The notes under the pieces are model-generated. The model saw only the letters and a list, made by a program, of their open reading frames with translations, searched no databases and was not told the DNA's origin. DNA of 64,000 nucleotides from Acidimicrobiales bacterium (GTDB lineage: Bacteria > Actinomycetota > Acidimicrobiia > Acidimicrobiales > Bog-793), in contig JBEKCO010000003.1 of assembly GCA_050014835.1 (NCBI GenBank), forward strand, positions 733 through 64,732, given 5' to 3'. Positions 1-18,574 of this stretch are shown here, one piece after another (position 1 is the stretch's first letter; each line of letters starts with the position of its first letter). The position numbers were made by a program, and so were the translations under genes.

Positions 1-943
1 ATCCCGGTCGCCGCCTCGAGATGGGCCGCCCCGCGTCGGTCCGGTGCCAGCCCGACGACCCGGCCGCCGCGCTCGTGTGCCGCGAGGGCCGCGGCACGCA
101 CCATCGCCAGGGCGCGGAGCGGATCCGTCTCGGAATCCGTCCCGACGACACCGGAAAGCGCGATACCCGTCCCGCCGAGGACCGGAGCCGAGTCCATCAG
201 CGTCGCGAGATGCTCGGTGAGCGCTGCGACCTCCCTCGTCTCGAATCGGGTCTCGATCAGACCGCCGGGGATGCGCCCGCCTCCGGCGGCCCGCAGCAGG
301 AGGGATCGCTCCCCGCAGGCGACGACCTCGCCCGAGCCCAGATGGGCGTCGACGGCGGCTTCGACGCGCCCGGCGGGGGCGCCGTCGACGAGGCGCGAAC
401 AGGTCGCTCGGATCAGCTCGCGCCGGTCGAACGCCCGGCCGAGGGAATCGGCGGCGATCCCGACGCGTGCCTCGACCTCCTGGTCGCGGTCGACCCCGGC
501 CATCGCGCCGCGCACGGCGCCCCTGTCGAGCCGGGAGACCGCCGTGCGCGACACACCGAACGAGAATGCTCGTTCGCGCCAGGCGGCGACGAGCGTCGGG
601 TAGTCGCCGCCGAGATCCTTTGGCGCGCGGGTGCGGTTCGCGGCAAGACGCGCCGAGTACGGCCCGGACCGCCCCGTCCGGGCGAGCTCGGCGGCGATCT
701 CCGCGCTCCGGCGGGAGAACCCCCGCAGCGCCGCCGCCGGAATGCCGATGAGGTCCGCGAAGCCCTCGGCGCGCGTCTGCCAGTCGACCGACAGCCGCCG
801 AGAGATCTCGTGCCGCAGCCCGGCGCGGTAGAGCGCGCCGGCCGCCGCGGCGTGCACGAAGAGCGGGCGGGCGTCGATCGCTGACCATCGCCGGTCGGCG
901 TCCGGTGCGAGGTTGGCGATGACGAGATGTGTATGGAGGTGCG
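1..943 (-). pseudogene. TrwC/MobF-family conjugative relaxase, distal fragment of a gene split by the casposon (continues past the left window edge)
   Basis: The minus-strand frame is open from 943 to 1. It is absent from the ORF track because it has no stop in the window. My translation from 943 downward reads PHLHTHLVIANLAPDADRRWSAIDARPLFVHAAAAGALYRAGLRHEISRRLSVDWQTRAEGFADLIGIP... This is the HxH half of the relaxase His-triad plus downstream helices. It joins in frame to 18092..18574. The 21..884 + ORF is its Arg/Gly/Pro-rich antisense shadow. Confidence 0.8.
930..943. repeat. Target-site duplication, left copy (TGTATGGAGGTGCG)
   Basis: The identical 14-mer recurs at 18092..18105, directly abutting the other element terminus. 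A 15th base (G) also matches, but it is equally the first base of the TIR. Confidence 0.85.
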
Positions 944-975
944 GGGATAGGTGATAGCGACGGCGGAAACGTCCG
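944..975 (+). repeat. Casposon left terminal inverted repeat (GGGATAGGTGATAGCGACGGCGGAAACGTCCG)
   Basis: The reverse complement of 18060..18091 is GGGATAGGTGATAGGGCGCGCGGAAACGTCCG. That is 28/32 identical, with the first 14 and last 13 nt perfect. Confidence 0.85.
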
Positions 976-3334: not shown

Positions 3335-6295
3335 TCAAGCCAGGGCCTCCATCGCCTTTCGGTGTCCGGCGTGCGGCATCGCCCGCCCCTTCAAGATGTC
3401 CCTGGCCCTACGCTCGCTGATCCCGATGGCGTCGGCGACCTTCTTGGATCCCATCGCCTGCAGCTTCGGCAGTGTGATCCTCCGCCACCCGTCATCGTCG
3501 TCGTAGACGGCCAGACGATCGTCCAGCTCCTCGACCGTGACGAGCCCAGCCATCCGCTCCTCGAGCCTGTTCGACTCCTTCCCGATGAGCTTGATCTCTC
3601 CGGCGGTAACTGGCCGGCGCTGGAGCAAGCCCACGGTGCCACGCCCGCAGGGCTCGCCGTCGGGGCCGAGCGCCTTGGCCTCGGGATGGGCGGCGTACTT
3701 CTCGTCGACGTCGCCGTAGGTGTCCACCTTCGGCTGGCCGGATCGGCCAGCGACTGTCGTGATTCGGTACGAACGGCGTTCGGGATGGTGCAGGTCGACC
3801 CAGGAGAGCTTCGACCACCGTGTTGGGTCGGATTCCCACGGTGCGACGAGCCGGAAGCGGTCCCCGGGACCGACACCTGCAGGAGGTGTCACGCCGGCCG
3901 CGCTCAGCATGAAGTTGAACGGCTTGACCTGGTCCGCGTACGGCTTGCCCTCGTTGAAGCGCCGGAACGCCCGGAGCACGGCAGGTGACGTGACAGTCGT
4001 GCGGATCATCGTCGGCCGCGCGAACCATCTCGGCCGCTCGACCGGCAGCCCGAGTGCCTCGTGAAGGATGACGGACCAGATCTGAGGGATCCAACGTGGG
4101 TCCTCGCTCTTTGGGCCGAGGGGGTTCAGGAGCTGGCCGAGGCCATGCTCTGACGGTGGGTGCTCCTCGAGGAAGATTGGCTCGCCAGCCTCGTCGAGGC
4201 GGTACAGCGCGTAGCGCTTGGCCGAGATGGCGAAGCACATCGCCGTCGCCTCGTCCTTGAGGATGCTCGGGACCACCTCCTCGTCGTAGGGGTTGAGGGC
4301 CGCGAAGCGGTGCCGGATGGACTCGACCTGGTCGAAAGACAGGGCGCGAACAGCCTCAGACCCATCGGGAAGGCGCGCCGGGCCTCCGGGGCAGGCCACG
4401 AGGCCTCCTCGCTCGGAGCACACGATCGCCATGGAGTCGGTGTCGCAGAACGCCCAGCTGCCGCCCAAGTCGGTGACGTTGCGCTCCAGCACGGCGAGCA
4501 TGAGCCGCGCAGCTCCAGTGATGCAGGTGGCGAGCGGCGGGAAGCAGTACCGCCCCGGGTCCTCGGGGCCGCTAGCCCAGTCCTCGAAGGGAACCTCGGA
4601 TCGGCCGTAGACGACCATTCGGGCCTGCTTGCCCTTCGGGAGCTCGTCCCGGTTGAACTCGCCCCAGATCCCGAAGGAGCCCGCGTTGGCAACGATCTTG
4701 AGAGCCATCGAAAGGCGCTGCTTCTCTCCCTCGGGGAGGTCGGTCCTGTGCAGGATGCGCTGGCGCTCCTCGACCATCGATCGGAACGGGTCCTCCGCGG
4801 CCGGATCGAGCTGCACGGCTCCCCGCAACTTGACGGAGCGGAGCCTTCTCACCCGGCCCACAGGGACCAGGCGGAAGGCTCTCACAATCTTCGGCGTTTG
4901 ACCGGTGAGCAGCTTCGAGGCGACGCAGTCCGGTATCGAGTACCAGAGCGGCTCGCTCGAGGTCAGCGGGTTGACACCGATTCCCCATGACTGGCCGCCG
5001 TAGGCGGCGCGGACAGGGAGGATGTCGCCATCAGGCTCGACAAGCACGAAACCGACCAGCTGGGGCCAGAGGTCCTGCTCGACGGTGTCCTCCAGCGTCA
5101 CGCGCTCGAGCAGCTCCGCGACCTCCGAGGTCGCGTCCACAACTCTGACCTGCTCGGCGGTGCGAAAGCGGTGGAGGTCCATGAGCGCCCCGACGGTTGG
5201 GTACATCGAGGTGAAGTCGGTGAGCTTCACGGGGACTGGGACGCGGCGGATCCGGCATTCGGCCCTGCCGCCGAAGAACGTGGACATGGCGTAACCGAGA
5301 TCCTCGCGGGAGAAGTCCGGCTGGCGGTCGAGAATCGGCAGCAGGCCCATGGCGTTGAGGTAGGCCTTTGCCATCGAGGCAGGAGAGTAGGCGCGCTCGG
5401 GCGAGATGGTGACCGGGTGACGCTCGAACTCGGCGTTGAGCGCCATATAAAGGCCAAAGGTCGCGGCGGCGTCCTGGCGGCAGTAGTCGATGTACTTCTC
5501 GGTGATCTTCCCGTGGCCTCCGGGGTTGTCCTTGCCTTGGACGCCGAAGGCATCACACGCGTCTTGGAGGCTGTAAGCAATTCCCGTGAGGGCGAAGGCG
5601 AGCGTTCTCAGGTCGAGGAAACGCCCCCGCCAGGCGTAGCCGGGGTCGGGCTTCTGGTCCCTGGAGCCGTCGGGGATCAGGTCGACAAGGTCGGGCTCTA
5701 CAGGCTTGGTGAAGGACATGAACGCGAGCTTCGAGTTGGCGTGCTTGATGTCGACCCTGGGCCGGTGGCGGCGCTCCTTGTGAGGCGTGCCCGCCTTGCC
5801 CGGCGCGAGGACCAGGGAGAACCCGCCACGGTTCATGCGGCGTCCCTCGCTGGCCCTGATCGCCAGCCTCGACAGATCGAAAGGGAGGTTGAAGCCGACG
5901 ACCAGGTCACGACCCCCGTAAGCGGCTGAGAAGAAGACCCTCTCCACGAACTTGGACTGCGACAACAGCCGGATTCGCCGTTGCCTGCCTGTGCCGAGGA
6001 GGGTGGAGCGCTTGGCCACATAGCGCTGCAGCTCCGCGTAGCCTCCGGGGTCTCGCTCAGGAAGGACGTCGGCATAGAAGAGCCCCTCATCGATGAGCAT
6101 CGGCCCGTCGGGATCGAGGCGGTAGTAGCGCCAGGCGCCGAACTTGAGCGCCTGGGCGTAGTCCGTCGTGGTCTCCGTGTCGAACACGAGGACACCTGGC
6201 CGGACGGTGTGCCGATGGTCGGGACGCGAGCGTCGCTTGGTGTCGACCCGCTCCGTCCAGACGCGGTGCGCGATGGGAAGCCTCGGATCGGTCAT
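3335..6295 (-). CDS. polB: Family B DNA polymerase (casposon PolB), 986 aa
   Basis: Exonuclease motifs: Exo I VLVFDTET, Exo II GFNLPFDLSRL, Exo III YCRQDAAAT. Polymerase motifs: A DFTSMYPT, B KIVANAGSFGIWG, C FCDTDS (DTD encoded at 4436..4444) and KxY AISAKRYAL. About 265 aa of C-terminal extension end in an HTH-like segment (KKVADAIGISERRARDIL). Confidence 0.9.
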   Translation of the reverse strand: MTDPRLPIAHRVWTERVDTKRRSRPDHRHTVRPGVLVFDTETTTDYAQALKFGAWRYYRLDPDGPMLIDEGLFYADVLPERDPGGYAELQRYVAKRSTLLGTGRQRRIRLLSQSKFVERVFFSAAYGGRDLVVGFNLPFDLSRLAIRASEGRRMNRGGFSLVLAPGKAGTPHKERRHRPRVDIKHANSKLAFMSFTKPVEPDLVDLIPDGSRDQKPDPGYAWRGRFLDLRTLAFALTGIAYSLQDACDAFGVQGKDNPGGHGKITEKYIDYCRQDAAATFGLYMALNAEFERHPVTISPERAYSPASMAKAYLNAMGLLPILDRQPDFSREDLGYAMSTFFGGRAECRIRRVPVPVKLTDFTSMYPTVGALMDLHRFRTAEQVRVVDATSEVAELLERVTLEDTVEQDLWPQLVGFVLVEPDGDILPVRAAYGGQSWGIGVNPLTSSEPLWYSIPDCVASKLLTGQTPKIVRAFRLVPVGRVRRLRSVKLRGAVQLDPAAEDPFRSMVEERQRILHRTDLPEGEKQRLSMALKIVANAGSFGIWGEFNRDELPKGKQARMVVYGRSEVPFEDWASGPEDPGRYCFPPLATCITGAARLMLAVLERNVTDLGGSWAFCDTDSMAIVCSERGGLVACPGGPARLPDGSEAVRALSFDQVESIRHRFAALNPYDEEVVPSILKDEATAMCFAISAKRYALYRLDEAGEPIFLEEHPPSEHGLGQLLNPLGPKSEDPRWIPQIWSVILHEALGLPVERPRWFARPTMIRTTVTSPAVLRAFRRFNEGKPYADQVKPFNFMLSAAGVTPPAGVGPGDRFRLVAPWESDPTRWSKLSWVDLHHPERRSYRITTVAGRSGQPKVDTYGDVDEKYAAHPEAKALGPDGEPCGRGTVGLLQRRPVTAGEIKLIGKESNRLEERMAGLVTVEELDDRLAVYDDDDGWRRITLPKLQAMGSKKVADAIGISERRARDILKGRAMPHAGHRKAMEALA

Positions 6296-7559: not shown

Positions 7560-8396
7560 GTGCCACTGAGCAGGGCCGAAATGGTGCTTGCCGCCAAAGG
7601 GGCGGGGTTCAGCGAGGTCTCAGAGCGGCTCGTCACTGACTGGGCACAGCTCGGGCTGCTCGATCATCCGCGACGAGCACCGCGGCCGAAGGGCTCTGGT
7701 CAGGGCGCGTTCTACCAGTGGTCGGACAATCAGCGGGAGTTGTTCTTACTCCTGCTGAGATGGCGCCAAGTGGTCCGATCCGTTGGCGCGCTGGCGGAAG
7801 TAACCGTCGCTGTATGGCTCTACCGGGACGACGAGTGGGCGACCTTGGCACAAGTGCGACGAGTACTGAAGACCTGGCGCGGCCGGTCTCCAAGGTCGTA
7901 CGAGCAGGCCGAACGTGACGCTCGAACCATTTGGAGAGCGGCTTTCGGCGATATCCAGGTGCCGGAGGATCGTCGTCGCTTTATCAAGGCACTTACGGAC
8001 CTCACTTACCGACGGGTTGCCGATGAAGCCAATGTGCGTGAGCTGGTCGTCGCGCTGTTTAAGCGCGTCCGCGGTCACCAATCGTGGGGGCCGTTCTCCT
8101 TCGACGCAGAGGACGTCGCGCGCTGGATTTACATGCTCATCGCTGGTGTCGAACGCTTCGAGAAGCTCGACGATGATCTGTGGAACGAGGCTCGAAAACG
8201 CCATCGCCAGCTCATCTTCGTGTACAGCCGAGAGTGGTCTCGCTTGTCCCAAGATCCTCAAGTCGGCTGGTTATTCGAAGACCAGACCTCAAAACCCTTC
8301 ATCACGAACGCATGCGAAATTCTGCTCGCTGGTCTGGGGACGCTGGCGTTGGAACTAGAGAAAGGTGACCAACCTGCGCCACTGACCGACGGCTAG
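7560..8396 (+). CDS. Hypothetical protein encoded immediately upstream of cas1
   Basis: 278-aa ORF with a GTG start. The N-terminus (RLVTDWAQLGLLD) is weakly HTH-like and the rest is helical with no recognised family. It is likely co-transcribed with cas1. Confidence 0.5.
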   Translation: MPLSRAEMVLAAKGAGFSEVSERLVTDWAQLGLLDHPRRAPRPKGSGQGAFYQWSDNQRELFLLLLRWRQVVRSVGALAEVTVAVWLYRDDEWATLAQVRRVLKTWRGRSPRSYEQAERDARTIWRAAFGDIQVPEDRRRFIKALTDLTYRRVADEANVRELVVALFKRVRGHQSWGPFSFDAEDVARWIYMLIAGVERFEKLDDDLWNEARKRHRQLIFVYSREWSRLSQDPQVGWLFEDQTSKPFITNACEILLAGLGTLALELEKGDQPAPLTDG

Positions 8397-8466
8397 CAAG
8401 AGCGATCAAGTGCCCCGGGCGAGGCTGCAACCTCCCCGGGGCTGGCACCGAAAGGAGTGCTTTCGA

Positions 8467-10026
8467 ATGCACCAACAAGCTACCGAGATGTTCGCCTCGG
8501 GCGCAGTCCGGGAGGGCATCTGCGTCGTCGACGGCTACGGCCTGAGGGTCGCCGTCGAGCGCCGCCATCTCGTGATCGCCGACGGCATCGGCCGTGCCCG
8601 CAGAGTCCGACGCTTCGCCCGAGGCGACCGGTCCCTCCGGAGGGTCGTCGTGATCGGCAACTCTGGGACCCTCAGCCTCGGTGCCCTCCGATGGCTGACC
8701 GATGTCAAGGTGCCTCTCGTGCACATCGACCTCGAGGGTCGTGTGCTGGCCGTATCCGGTGCGGAAGGCACCGACAGCCCGGCCCTGCGAAGGGCACAGG
8801 CCCTCGCCATGGCGAGGCCCGAGGGTCTCGAGGTAGCTCGTGGCCTAATCGCGAGCAAGCTCCAGGGCCAGCTCCGTGTCGCGTGCGGCCTGCTCGCAGA
8901 GGCCAAGGCCACGGCGGTCATCGAGGCAGCCATCGAGGATCTCGAGGGGGCTCGGTCGCTGAGCGAGATCCTCTCGGCAGAGGCCATCGCAGCCTCGGCC
9001 TACTGGCCAGCCTGGGCGGACGTCCCTGTTCGCTTTGCCAGGGCTGACCTAGCCTCGATCCCTTCCCGCTGGCTCACAGTCGGGCAGCGCAGGTCCCCGC
9101 TCTCGGAATCGGCTAGATCGGCGGTAGCGCCTGCGCACGCCATCTTGAACTACTGCTACGCCCTCTTGGCCGCCGAGGTGCGCATCGCCTGCCTGACGAT
9201 GGGGCTCGATCCCGGCCTTGGCATCCTCCATGCGGACAAGGCCAACCGGGACTCCCTTGTCGCCGACCTGATGGAGCCGGTGAGGCCGGAGTTCGACGCC
9301 CTCGTGCTCGAGCTGCTCGACCAGCGCACCTTCCGGGCCTCCGACTTCGCCGAGACGCGGGCGGGAGTCTGCCGGGTGCTAGCGCCGCTCACGCACGAAC
9401 TGGCCGAATCGGCCAGTCGCTGGAGCAAGACCGCAGGGGCTGTCGCTGAGCAGGTGGCAGCGGATCTCTCCAAGACGAGTGAAGGCAGGGTCCGGCGGGT
9501 GTCGACGCCGCTTACCCAGCGCAGTAGGGCGGCCGCCGTGAGGCAGTCGTACGGACACGAGGCTCCCAAGCCATCCCAATCCAGGAAGGTCGCTCCGACC
9601 TGCCGGTCGTGTGGCGCTCCGACGCCGAGGCAGGGCTACCTCTACTGCAATCGGTGCCGCCCGGAGCGGAAGGCCCAGGCCCTCGCGGCGCTCCAGGAGG
9701 CCCGGCGCATTGCTCAGGACCGACGTGACAGGGAGGGGCAGGACCCCTCGCGGAGCGAAGAGGCCCTTGCCAAGCAACGCCGATCGATGCAACGGCGTAG
9801 GCGCGAGGAGCAAGAGTGGGAAGAGGCCGGTGGCGAGGCGCAGGACCCGTCCGTCTTCATCGAGGAGATCCTCCCCCTCATCCAGCCCCTGTCGACCTTG
9901 CTGCTGTCGAGGGCGACGGGCCTGTCTCGCAGCTACTGCCTAGACGTCCGAGCCGGGAAGTACGTGCCGCACCCGAGGCACTGGGAGGCGTTCCGGCGAG
10001 CTGCCGACCCCGCGGCGGGCTGTTAG
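8467..10026 (+). CDS. cas1: Cas1-family integrase (casposase) with a zinc ribbon and C-terminal HTH
   Basis: N-terminal domain: VVVIGNSGTLSLGALRWLTDVKVPLVHIDLEGRV. Catalytic-domain signatures: SAEAIAASAYW (Glu codon 8980..8982), NYCYALLAAEV and GLDPGLGILHADKANRDSLVADLMEPVRPEFD (His 9229..9231, Asp 9265..9267, Glu 9274..9276). CxxC...CxxC lies at 9601..9657. C-terminal HTH-like segment: LSRATGLSRSYCLDVRAGKYVPHPRHW. The ATG at 8467 is preceded by AAAGGAG at 9-nt spacing; the track start at 8410 (GTG) is less likely. Confidence 0.9.
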   Translation: MHQQATEMFASGAVREGICVVDGYGLRVAVERRHLVIADGIGRARRVRRFARGDRSLRRVVVIGNSGTLSLGALRWLTDVKVPLVHIDLEGRVLAVSGAEGTDSPALRRAQALAMARPEGLEVARGLIASKLQGQLRVACGLLAEAKATAVIEAAIEDLEGARSLSEILSAEAIAASAYWPAWADVPVRFARADLASIPSRWLTVGQRRSPLSESARSAVAPAHAILNYCYALLAAEVRIACLTMGLDPGLGILHADKANRDSLVADLMEPVRPEFDALVLELLDQRTFRASDFAETRAGVCRVLAPLTHELAESASRWSKTAGAVAEQVAADLSKTSEGRVRRVSTPLTQRSRAAAVRQSYGHEAPKPSQSRKVAPTCRSCGAPTPRQGYLYCNRCRPERKAQALAALQEARRIAQDRRDREGQDPSRSEEALAKQRRSMQRRRREEQEWEEAGGEAQDPSVFIEEILPLIQPLSTLLLSRATGLSRSYCLDVRAGKYVPHPRHWEAFRRAADPAAGC

Positions 10027-18059: not shown

Positions 18060-18091
18060 CGGACGTTTCCGCGCGCCCTATCACCTATCCC
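18060..18091 (-). repeat. Casposon right terminal inverted repeat
   Basis: The reverse complement, GGGATAGGTGATAGGGCGCGCGGAAACGTCCG, matches 944..975 at 28/32 positions. Confidence 0.85.
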
Positions 18092-18105
18092 TGTATGGAG
18101 GTGCG
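18092..18105. repeat. Target-site duplication, right copy (TGTATGGAGGTGCG)
   Basis: Identical to 930..943. On the minus strand it encodes part of PHLHT of the relaxase. Confidence 0.85.
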
Positions 18106-18574
18106 GATCCTCAGCGCGGCTCGTCCGGTGGAGGAACGACGCAGCAGCGAAACCGGGCGAGGCGACGGGCGCGCCGGAGCGGCGCACAGTCGCGGCGTGC
18201 CTCTCCAGGTACCCGAGGGCCCCGGCGACCGCACGCTCATGCGAGGCGCGCACCTGCTCCACGGTTTCCGGCCCGCCGAGGGCGTGGAGGACGCTTACGG
18301 ACTTCGGTGCGGCAAAGGTGCAGTCGAAGGCCGCGACGGTGACCCGGCCATGGCGGGGATCGAGCGCCTCGCCGCTCGTCGGATCCACGCCGGCGAGCAG
18401 CATCGTCAGATTCGCGGCGTCGACGGTCCGGTCCGCGAGGCCGAGGCCCTCGGCGAGGATCCCCCACCAGACACCGTCGGGTTCGACGAGTCCCGGCCGA
18501 TCGGGTGCCGCCGCCCGCGTCGACTCGAGGTAGTACGTCTCGCGTCCTCGCCGCACCTTCGCCACGCTCAGCAC
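18092..18574 (-). pseudogene. TrwC/MobF-family relaxase, N-terminal fragment truncated by the casposon
   Basis: MLSVAKVRRGRETYYLES...GVWWG...AAFDCTFAAPKSVSVL...ASHERAVAGALGYLERHAATVRR...ASFLHRTSRAEDPHLHT is the canonical TrwC relaxase N-terminus. After HLHT (ending at 18092) the frame runs into TIR sequence (GIGDRARG...) and stops at 18023. Confidence 0.85.

Follow-up and report, generated by a model that had tools for sequence, protein, structure and literature searches.

What is a Cas1 protein doing in a genome that encodes no Cas2 and holds no CRISPR array, and what is the use of a long C-terminal tail in which a zinc ribbon, a charged segment and a helix-turn-helix (HTH) domain follow the Cas1 core? 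The question is raised by one open reading frame (ORF) in a 64,000-nucleotide stretch of DNA from an Acidimicrobiales bacterium (Bog-793; assembly GCA_050014835.1), here called the window, which comprises bases 733-64732 of the 65,331-base contig JBEKCO010000003.1; the contig runs on beyond it by 732 and 599 bases only. Casposases are Cas1-family integrases that work without Cas2 or a CRISPR array, and the product of the ORF is in all likelihood such an enzyme, belonging to a self-replicating bacterial casposon, 17.1 kb long, of the AceAut-C1 type (family 3). The role of the tail is a harder matter, and the reading that we favour, in which it anchors the enzyme on the ends of the element, is put forward tentatively.

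The Met start of ORF 8467-10026 is the same in homologues (alignment A1, 33 sequences), and a GTG at 8410, which would give a protein of 538 residues, was ruled out as the start, as homologue starts and the Shine-Dalgarno sequence favour the ATG at 8467. The identical 519-residue protein is recorded on 11 contigs. Pfam Cas_Cas1 (PF01867) covers residues 21-301 with an E value of 5e-39 (134.5 bits against a cut-off of 22.3), and TIGR00287 (cas1) scores 108.1 bits against a cut-off of 71.7. An AlphaFold2 (AF2) model of the full-length protein has a predicted local distance difference test score (pLDDT) of 86 and a predicted template-modelling score of 0.74, the pLDDT being mostly above 85 in the Cas1 core. 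A first-pass annotation of the locus, made from the sequence alone, had proposed comparing such a model with the known Cas1 and casposase structures, and in that comparison 6opm, the casposase of M. mazei, comes out on top in the PDB (E 1.8e-17, target TM 0.79), with CRISPR Cas1 structures next; in sequence score, the A. fulgidus CRISPR Cas1 4n06 reaches 76 bits versus 63 bits for 6opm. The Glu, His, Asp and Glu codons that the same annotation had picked out as catalytic map exactly to E172, H255, D267 and E270, whose four columns are invariant in A1 and align with active-site residues of 4n06 and 6opm. This stand-alone Cas1 is apparently active and in all likelihood acts as a casposase.

The gene sits in an element whose terminal inverted repeats (TIRs) are flanked by a perfect target site duplication (TSD), and which also carries a gene for a family B DNA polymerase (PolB; Table 1). 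The TIR-bounded segment has a G+C content of 0.56-0.67 versus ~0.70-0.73 in the flank past 18,000, the short left flank being likewise lower in G+C than that flank. Box 1 of the TIR is found nowhere else in the assembly, and the element is therefore single-copy. The two flanks read as the halves of a TrwC relaxase gene that the casposon interrupts, and the PF08751 ranges of these halves have the five TSD codons in common. The polymerase has the exonuclease and polymerase motifs of family B, conserved as DTET, FNLPFD, YNRRD, SMYPT, KVLANAxSYG, CDTDS and KRY (alignment A2, with 11 homologues), and DNA_pol_B_2 is matched in 10 of the 12 members of its family (best E 9e-9). The element's own PolB had no Pfam match above the cut-off (E 0.043), and no PDB match was obtained with either its single sequence or a 12-sequence profile, which is why its identity rests on the motifs, on weak PHROG matches and on the DNA_pol_B_2 matches of its homologues; this PolB clade is poorly covered by current profiles. 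The last 64 residues of PolB align to the HTH of the casposase (hhalign of the two family alignments, probability 97.8%, E 9.6e-13), some PolB homologues match HTH_3 or HTH_31, and by these alignments the two domains are homologous.

Table 1. Features of the casposon, its casposase gene and the interrupted relaxase gene (positions are those of the window; AF2, AlphaFold2; ZBD, zinc-binding domain).
Feature	Position	Strand	Remarks
TrwC relaxase, C-terminal continuation	3..944, runs off the window	-	PF08751 E 8e-26, profile positions 154-283
TSD, left copy, TGTATGGAGGTGCG	930..943	.	perfect 14-bp direct repeat
Left TIR	944..975	+	32 bp; box 1 GGGATAGGTGATAG, box 2 GAAACGTCCG
Family B DNA polymerase (PolB)	3335..6295	-	986 aa; motifs and Pfam matches of homologues
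PolB C-terminal HTH	3338..3529	-	blastp E 2e-6 to the casposase HTH
Shine-Dalgarno sequence, GAAAGGAG	8451..8458	+	8 nt 5' of the ATG at 8467; direct reading
Casposase gene (Cas1-ZBD-hairpin-HTH)	8467..10026, including stop	+	519 aa, no internal stop
Cas1 core	8515..9471	+	N-terminal beta domain ~17-100, alpha-helical catalytic domain ~105-335; AF2, Pfam, TIGRFAM
Span of catalytic codons	8980..9276	+	E172 (8980), H255 (9229), D267 (9265), E270 (9274)
Connector	9484..9591	+	residues ~340-375; pLDDT 49-64; variable, gappy columns in A1; dN/dS 0.12-0.21
Four-Cys zinc ribbon	9592..9660	+	C379, C382, C394, C397; conservation and weak profile matches
Charged alpha-helical hairpin	9658..9825	+	AF2 helices 398-422 and 431-453; G424, P427, W451 conserved
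XRE/Cro-type HTH	9838..10011	+	residues ~458-515; motif ATGLS...VPHPRHW
Right TIR	18060..18091	-	28/32 complementary to the left TIR
TSD, right copy, TGTATGGAGGTGCG	18092..18105	.	perfect 14-bp direct repeat
TrwC relaxase, N-terminal fragment	18092..18574	-	PF08751 E 2e-35, profile positions 22-158

That no cas2 and no CRISPR array belongs to the gene, as the window alone had indicated, is borne out across the entire assembly (1.93 Mb, 92 contigs, 94.8% complete, 70% G+C). Cas2 (PF09827) has no match anywhere in it, there is a single Cas1 and no second cas1, and none of the 92 contigs yielded a repeat-spacer array when scanned for repeats at regular spacing; within the window, Rfam finds a tRNA alone and none of its CRISPR-DR families. 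The sole CRISPR-like candidate, three copies of the 16-mer CCTTCTTGGCCGGAGC at a spacing of ~55 nt (contig C63:6388-6499), is too short and too isolated for an array. The case for absence is strong, although it is not absolute because ~5% of the genome is unseen.

The C-terminal extension is encoded in the same uninterrupted frame as the core, and is neither a separate ORF nor the product of a mis-joined frame. Its cysteines lie in the stretch CRSCGAP...YCNRC at 9601-9657; C379, C382 and C397 are invariant in A1, C394 is conserved in at least 90% of the sequences, and a C-x2-C...C-x2-4-C pattern after residue 300 is present in all 117 of the full-length homologues that were fetched, so that the alignment with homologues proposed in the first-pass annotation finds the cysteines kept throughout. 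Weak DZR_2 or zinc-ribbon Pfam matches were obtained in 18 of 30 homologous tails, and a tail profile returned weak zinc-ribbon matches alone from the PDB sequences (RPA12, E 0.006, and eL37). When the tail is modeled by itself (residues 368-519, 30 homologues), AF2 gives a pLDDT of 93 and an architecture of two zinc knuckles, then two long helices, then a four- to five-helix domain. What had been described as a highly charged linker is certainly charged, with 16 Lys and Arg and 13 Asp and Glu per 56 residues and its Arg/Glu-rich stretch at residues 418-452, but it is predicted to be a conserved helical hairpin of two long helices rather than a loose or disordered spacer.

The HTH-like end noticed in the first reading of the sequence is of the XRE type, as indicated by HTH_31 and HTH_3 Pfam matches in homologues (HTH_31 in 5 of 30 tails, best E 1.4e-7), by VIA fold comparison (Z 5-6 over ~55-62 residues, to C.EcoT38IS, Aca10, ClgR and others) and by consistent but weak Foldseek matches of the tail to XRE proteins (probability 0.7-0.87). 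Foldseek of the tail against solved structures gave no match at E <=0.001; the matches across VIA are limited to the HTH, and fold searches are uninformative on the zinc ribbon and the hairpin. Residues T484-G485-S487, G497, P501-H502 and W506 are also conserved in A1. Measured against two relatives of 83-89% protein identity, the ratio of nonsynonymous to synonymous substitution rates (dN/dS) is 0.11-0.16 in the core, 0.05-0.23 in the zinc ribbon, 0.15-0.28 in the hairpin and 0.08-0.16 in the HTH, with 0.12-0.21 for the tail; dN/dS is therefore low in each part, and the whole tail is under purifying selection. A predicted homodimer of the tail (two copies of residues 368-519, using A3, an alignment of the tail alone) scored 0.00, which speaks neither for nor against dimerization.

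Some departures from this layout were seen. P0016, a homologue of 596 residues and 57% identity, has a second C-terminal HTH copy (TGLS...VPHPKHW) behind the first, and several tail-profile matches show two or three matched stretches. In P0149, a metagenomic protein of 190 residues that matches the tail profile, a PolB motif-A-like SMYPTV is joined straight to the casposase zinc ribbon; the gene call may contain a frameshift or be a chimera.

How unusual, then, is this tail? The first-pass annotation had suggested that the zinc ribbon and linker might be a lineage-specific module, and this does not hold, as the tail is present in every full-length homologue examined, in several phyla, and the Cas1-ZBD-HTH combination was published in 2014 (PMC4046053). 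A word-index search yielded 435 homologues of the casposase, mostly of 505-530 residues and covering 95-99% of the query. With the A3 profile, run among 1.84 billion proteins, 3357 cluster representatives are matched at E <=0.001, 341 of them at E <=1e-30, and the match always falls at the C-terminal end; many of the matched proteins are short, probably because they are cut by contig ends. Among contigs taken from one genome per species, 222 places encode a relative, and the best 79 of these, to which all locus counts here refer, come from Acidimicrobiales, Thermoleophilia/Gaiellaceae, Chloroflexota, Acidobacteriota, Gemmatimonadota, Eremiobacterota, Dormibacterota and Myxococcota, with Granulicella sp. 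L46 and two Tunturiibacter species as cultured hosts within the Acidobacteriota. A PolB homologue adjoins cas1 in 60 of the 79 loci and a 175-aa ORF in 59, the loci without PolB being mostly those with little upstream sequence. A tblastn search of PLSDB with the casposase returned partial matches to CRISPR Cas1 genes alone and no member of the family. No description of this large expansion in soil bacteria was found in the literature searched, which is not proof that there is none. The gene in the window is thus an ordinary, intact and typical member of a known but barely studied family. Its one unusual trait is the targeting of a relaxase gene, and this belongs to the whole element and not to a unique domain. 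Directly 5' of cas1 lies a 278-aa ORF (7560-8396, + strand) with no family match; as it has homologues in only 9 of the 79 loci, it does not count among the casposase's conserved partners in the family.

Any account of the tail has to reckon with the DNA sequences that such enzymes must find, and here the relatives are informative. When 14-mer direct repeats that adjoin inverted repeats were sought, ten further complete elements of 12.7-19.1 kb came to light, all with TSDs of ~14 bp. The TIRs are bipartite in the window element and in L005, L009, L013, L044, L059, L060, L064, L066, L081 and L085. Box 1 (GGGATAGGnGATAG) occupies the extreme tip of the TIR and can be recognized in 11 complete elements from three phyla, near-identical in most of them. 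In box 2, ~22-32 nt inward, AAC is common to the elements and the bases after it vary with the lineage; between the boxes lie 8-9 variable nt. Box 2 is (A)AACGTCCG at both ends of the window element and also in L081 and L085, and the spacer between the boxes differs in this clade even between the two ends of one element.

The TSDs differ between complete elements. In 6 of 11 of them, G[TA]CAA or its complement TTGAC occurs in either orientation at one TSD edge (left in L005, L012 and L061, right in L066 and in L064, an element from Tunturiibacter, and also in L059). A TTGAC-like edge resembles a -35 hexamer; the window element has no such edge. L081 and L085 share the TIR and TSD anatomy of the window element, and casposases P0003 (89% identical to that of the window) and P0007 (83%) also sit between two TrwC fragments. 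The TSD of L085 (1124-19526) is CGTATGGAGGTGCG, with the element oriented as in the window, and that of L081 (2260-21427) is CCCACCTTCACAGC, with the element in the opposite orientation and inserted at the same PHLH[T/S] codons and the same 14 positions. As the same 14 nt of TrwC have been hit despite wobble changes and in both orientations, the choice of site in this clade is precise, wobble-tolerant and free of orientation. These precise insertions also lend indirect support to an integrase activity that joins TIR 3' ends to the target with a 14-bp stagger. The cargo of these elements differs, with a type I restriction-modification system in L085 and an ion-channel gene and an HNH gene in L081. 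Both also encode a protein of 233-244 residues with weak ParB_N and HTH_23 matches between the 175-aa ORF and cas1 (L081:7904-8638, L085:7743-8444); the window element has no gene of that size at that place.

By analogy with published work on casposases, dimers of the enzyme would assemble into a tetramer on DNA which, as with the M. mazei protein, would clamp the target and join the 3' ends of both TIRs to target strands 14 bp apart. The tail may be the part that binds DNA and reads its sequence, and without which the core could not integrate. The need for such a part has a precedent, as deletion of the HTH of the M. mazei casposase abolished integration (PMC6977970). What the tail reads is the question. 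We lean, tentatively, towards the bipartite TIR: the tip, box 1, would be the place where the catalytic domain acts, the HTH and/or the zinc ribbon would bind box 2, and the HTH of PolB would bring the polymerase to the same ends. We favour this because PolB carries the same kind of HTH, because the ends are the one DNA that both enzymes must find, and because box 2 is lineage-specific and suitably distant from the tip. It is also consistent with the conservation of box 1 while the TSDs differ, and with the identity of box 2 among the three relaxase-targeting relatives.

Several points weigh against end-anchoring. For the tail of a family 3 casposase, binding to the ends is suggested by comparison of sequences, and the one casposase studied structurally gives it no direct support: the HTH of the M. 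mazei casposase was disordered in the crystal complex, the isolated domain showed no DNA binding, and the authors favoured recognition of the target flank (PMC6977970). The first-pass annotation had taken TIR binding by the C-terminal HTH of casposases as established; given that the isolated M. mazei HTH showed no DNA binding (PMC6977970), this was overstated and is better called a hypothesis than established knowledge. The 6opm chain was not retrieved when the tail profile was searched against PDB sequences (E <=10), a search that thus gave no sequence link between the HTH of the casposase and that of family 2 casposases. The Cas1 HTH and the PolB HTH of a single element have different recognition helices, so that the two need not read the same sequence. 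Finally, the recognition helix is SRSYCLDVRAG in the relaxase-targeting clade, as against SLRYCSxIRRG in the family majority, and as the target of this clade differs too, the change could track either the target or box 2.

It is possible instead, though we consider it less likely, that the tail selects the target, reading sequence in or next to the integration site while the Cas1 core handles the TIR ends alone. The site of the relaxase-targeting clade would then be the His-triad codons of TrwC, that of many relatives a TTGAC-like sequence, and changes in the recognition helix would explain switches of target. Such a role was suggested by Hickman et al. (2020) for the family 2 HTH, which they proposed to read sequence next to or upstream of the target, and the M. 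mazei core bound single-stranded ends without visible contact from the HTH (PMC6977970). Three elements whose casposases are 83-100% identical have entered the same 14 nt of TrwC despite wobble differences, the TSDs of other lineages differ, with the G[TA]CAA or TTGAC edge in 6 of 11, and it is in the relaxase-targeting clade that the recognition helix departs from the family majority. Yet the same type of HTH is present on PolB, a polymerase for which recognition of an integration target would be of no obvious use, and insertion at the relaxase site in both orientations gives no evident sign of an asymmetric reader that fixes orientation from the flank. A bolder version, in which the tail is a retargetable site selector and changes in the recognition helix shifted the clade away from TTGAC-type (-35-like) sites and onto the catalytic His-triad codons of TrwC, strikes us as improbable. 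Were it true, a transposon able to replicate itself would be homing into conjugative elements and inactivating them, and the tail would offer a natural handle for the reprogramming of Cas1-type integrases.

We regard it as unlikely that the tail is an assembly or regulatory module whose DNA contacts are non-specific, with the ribbon and hairpin mediating tetramer formation or contact with PolB or the element's small HTH proteins, or with the HTH acting as a repressor of the divergent promoters within the element. In favour of such a role, constraint within the tail is lowest in the hairpin (dN/dS 0.15-0.28), a highly charged segment, and casposases must tetramerize on DNA (PMC6977970); XRE-type HTH domains are typical repressors, and the cas1 and polB operons diverge from a 59-bp intergenic region. 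That the HTH and zinc ribbon are strongly conserved across phyla agrees at least equally well with a role in reading DNA, however, and a repressor role leaves unexplained why the HTH is required for family 2 integration in vitro (PMC6977970). Least of all do we credit a CRISPR adaptation Cas1 whose cas2 and array fall in the part of the genome that is missing from the assembly, or a solo Cas1 domesticated for some host task unrelated to transposition: 4n06 does outscore 6opm (76 against 63 bits) and ~5% of the genome is unseen (94.8% complete, 92 contigs), but the gene lies between TIRs, with a perfect TSD, in a split relaxase gene, PolB accompanies it in most relatives, insertions of its close relatives elsewhere at the same target and in both orientations indicate recent mobility, and neither cas2 nor an array is found anywhere in the assembly.

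The value of the gene in the window is itself mostly confirmatory, as it is an intact and typical member of its family; the family is of wider interest. Casposases are regarded as ancestral to the CRISPR spacer integrase, and according to PMC8464041 their biochemistry has been worked out in archaeal family 1 and family 2 enzymes only. The bacterial Cas1-ZBD-HTH type was represented by one fosmid in 2014 and is seen here as a very large family across soil phyla. With its bipartite TIR, constrained tail, HTH shared with PolB and cultured hosts, it is a good system for the study of end and target recognition by a Cas1 integrase.

How does the enzyme compare with those already known? CRISPR adaptation Cas1 proteins, such as A. 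fulgidus Cas1 (4n06) and type I-C Cas1, have the same fold and catalytic residues as the casposase of the window but are Cas2-dependent, array-adjacent and without a ZBD-HTH tail, whereas the latter is encoded in a TIR-bounded element. The M. mazei casposase (6opm) has in common with it a 14-bp TSD, a C-terminal HTH and independence of Cas2 (PMC6977970). It differs in being archaeal, in targeting the 3' end of a tRNA-Leu gene, in its identity of only 22-23% and in having neither the zinc ribbon nor the long hairpin, both of which are present here; zinc is not mentioned in PMC6977970. An HTH on both Cas1 and PolB is another trait that the window element has in common with family 2 casposons, which carry a similar HTH on PolB too (Krupovic et al., 2014; PMC4046053).

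The closest likenesses are within family 3. NitAL212-C1 of Nitrosomonas sp. AL212 has a 14-bp TSD, a ZBD and an HTH, and a TIR that begins GGGGTA..., as in some of the relatives described here (L012); its ZBD, however, is N-terminal, whereas that of the window casposase lies between the core and the HTH. Its catalytic segment is 47% identical to that of the window casposase, and that of AceAut-C1 Cas1 is 56% identical over 77 residues (E 4e-27), so that, judged on this segment, the protein probably belongs with family 3, closest to AceAut-C1. The latter element has TIRs of 602 bp and an intergenic target, as opposed to the 32-bp TIRs and relaxase gene target of the window element, and its host phylum and cargo are different. 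It too has TIRs, a TSD of 14-15 bp, a PolB gene and a Cas1 that stands alone, and the likeness extends to the tail, known in this case from the published description of its layout: the Cas1 of AceAut-C1 carries a ZBD and an HTH at its C-terminus (Krupovic et al., 2014; PMC4046053), as a 2023 review repeats.

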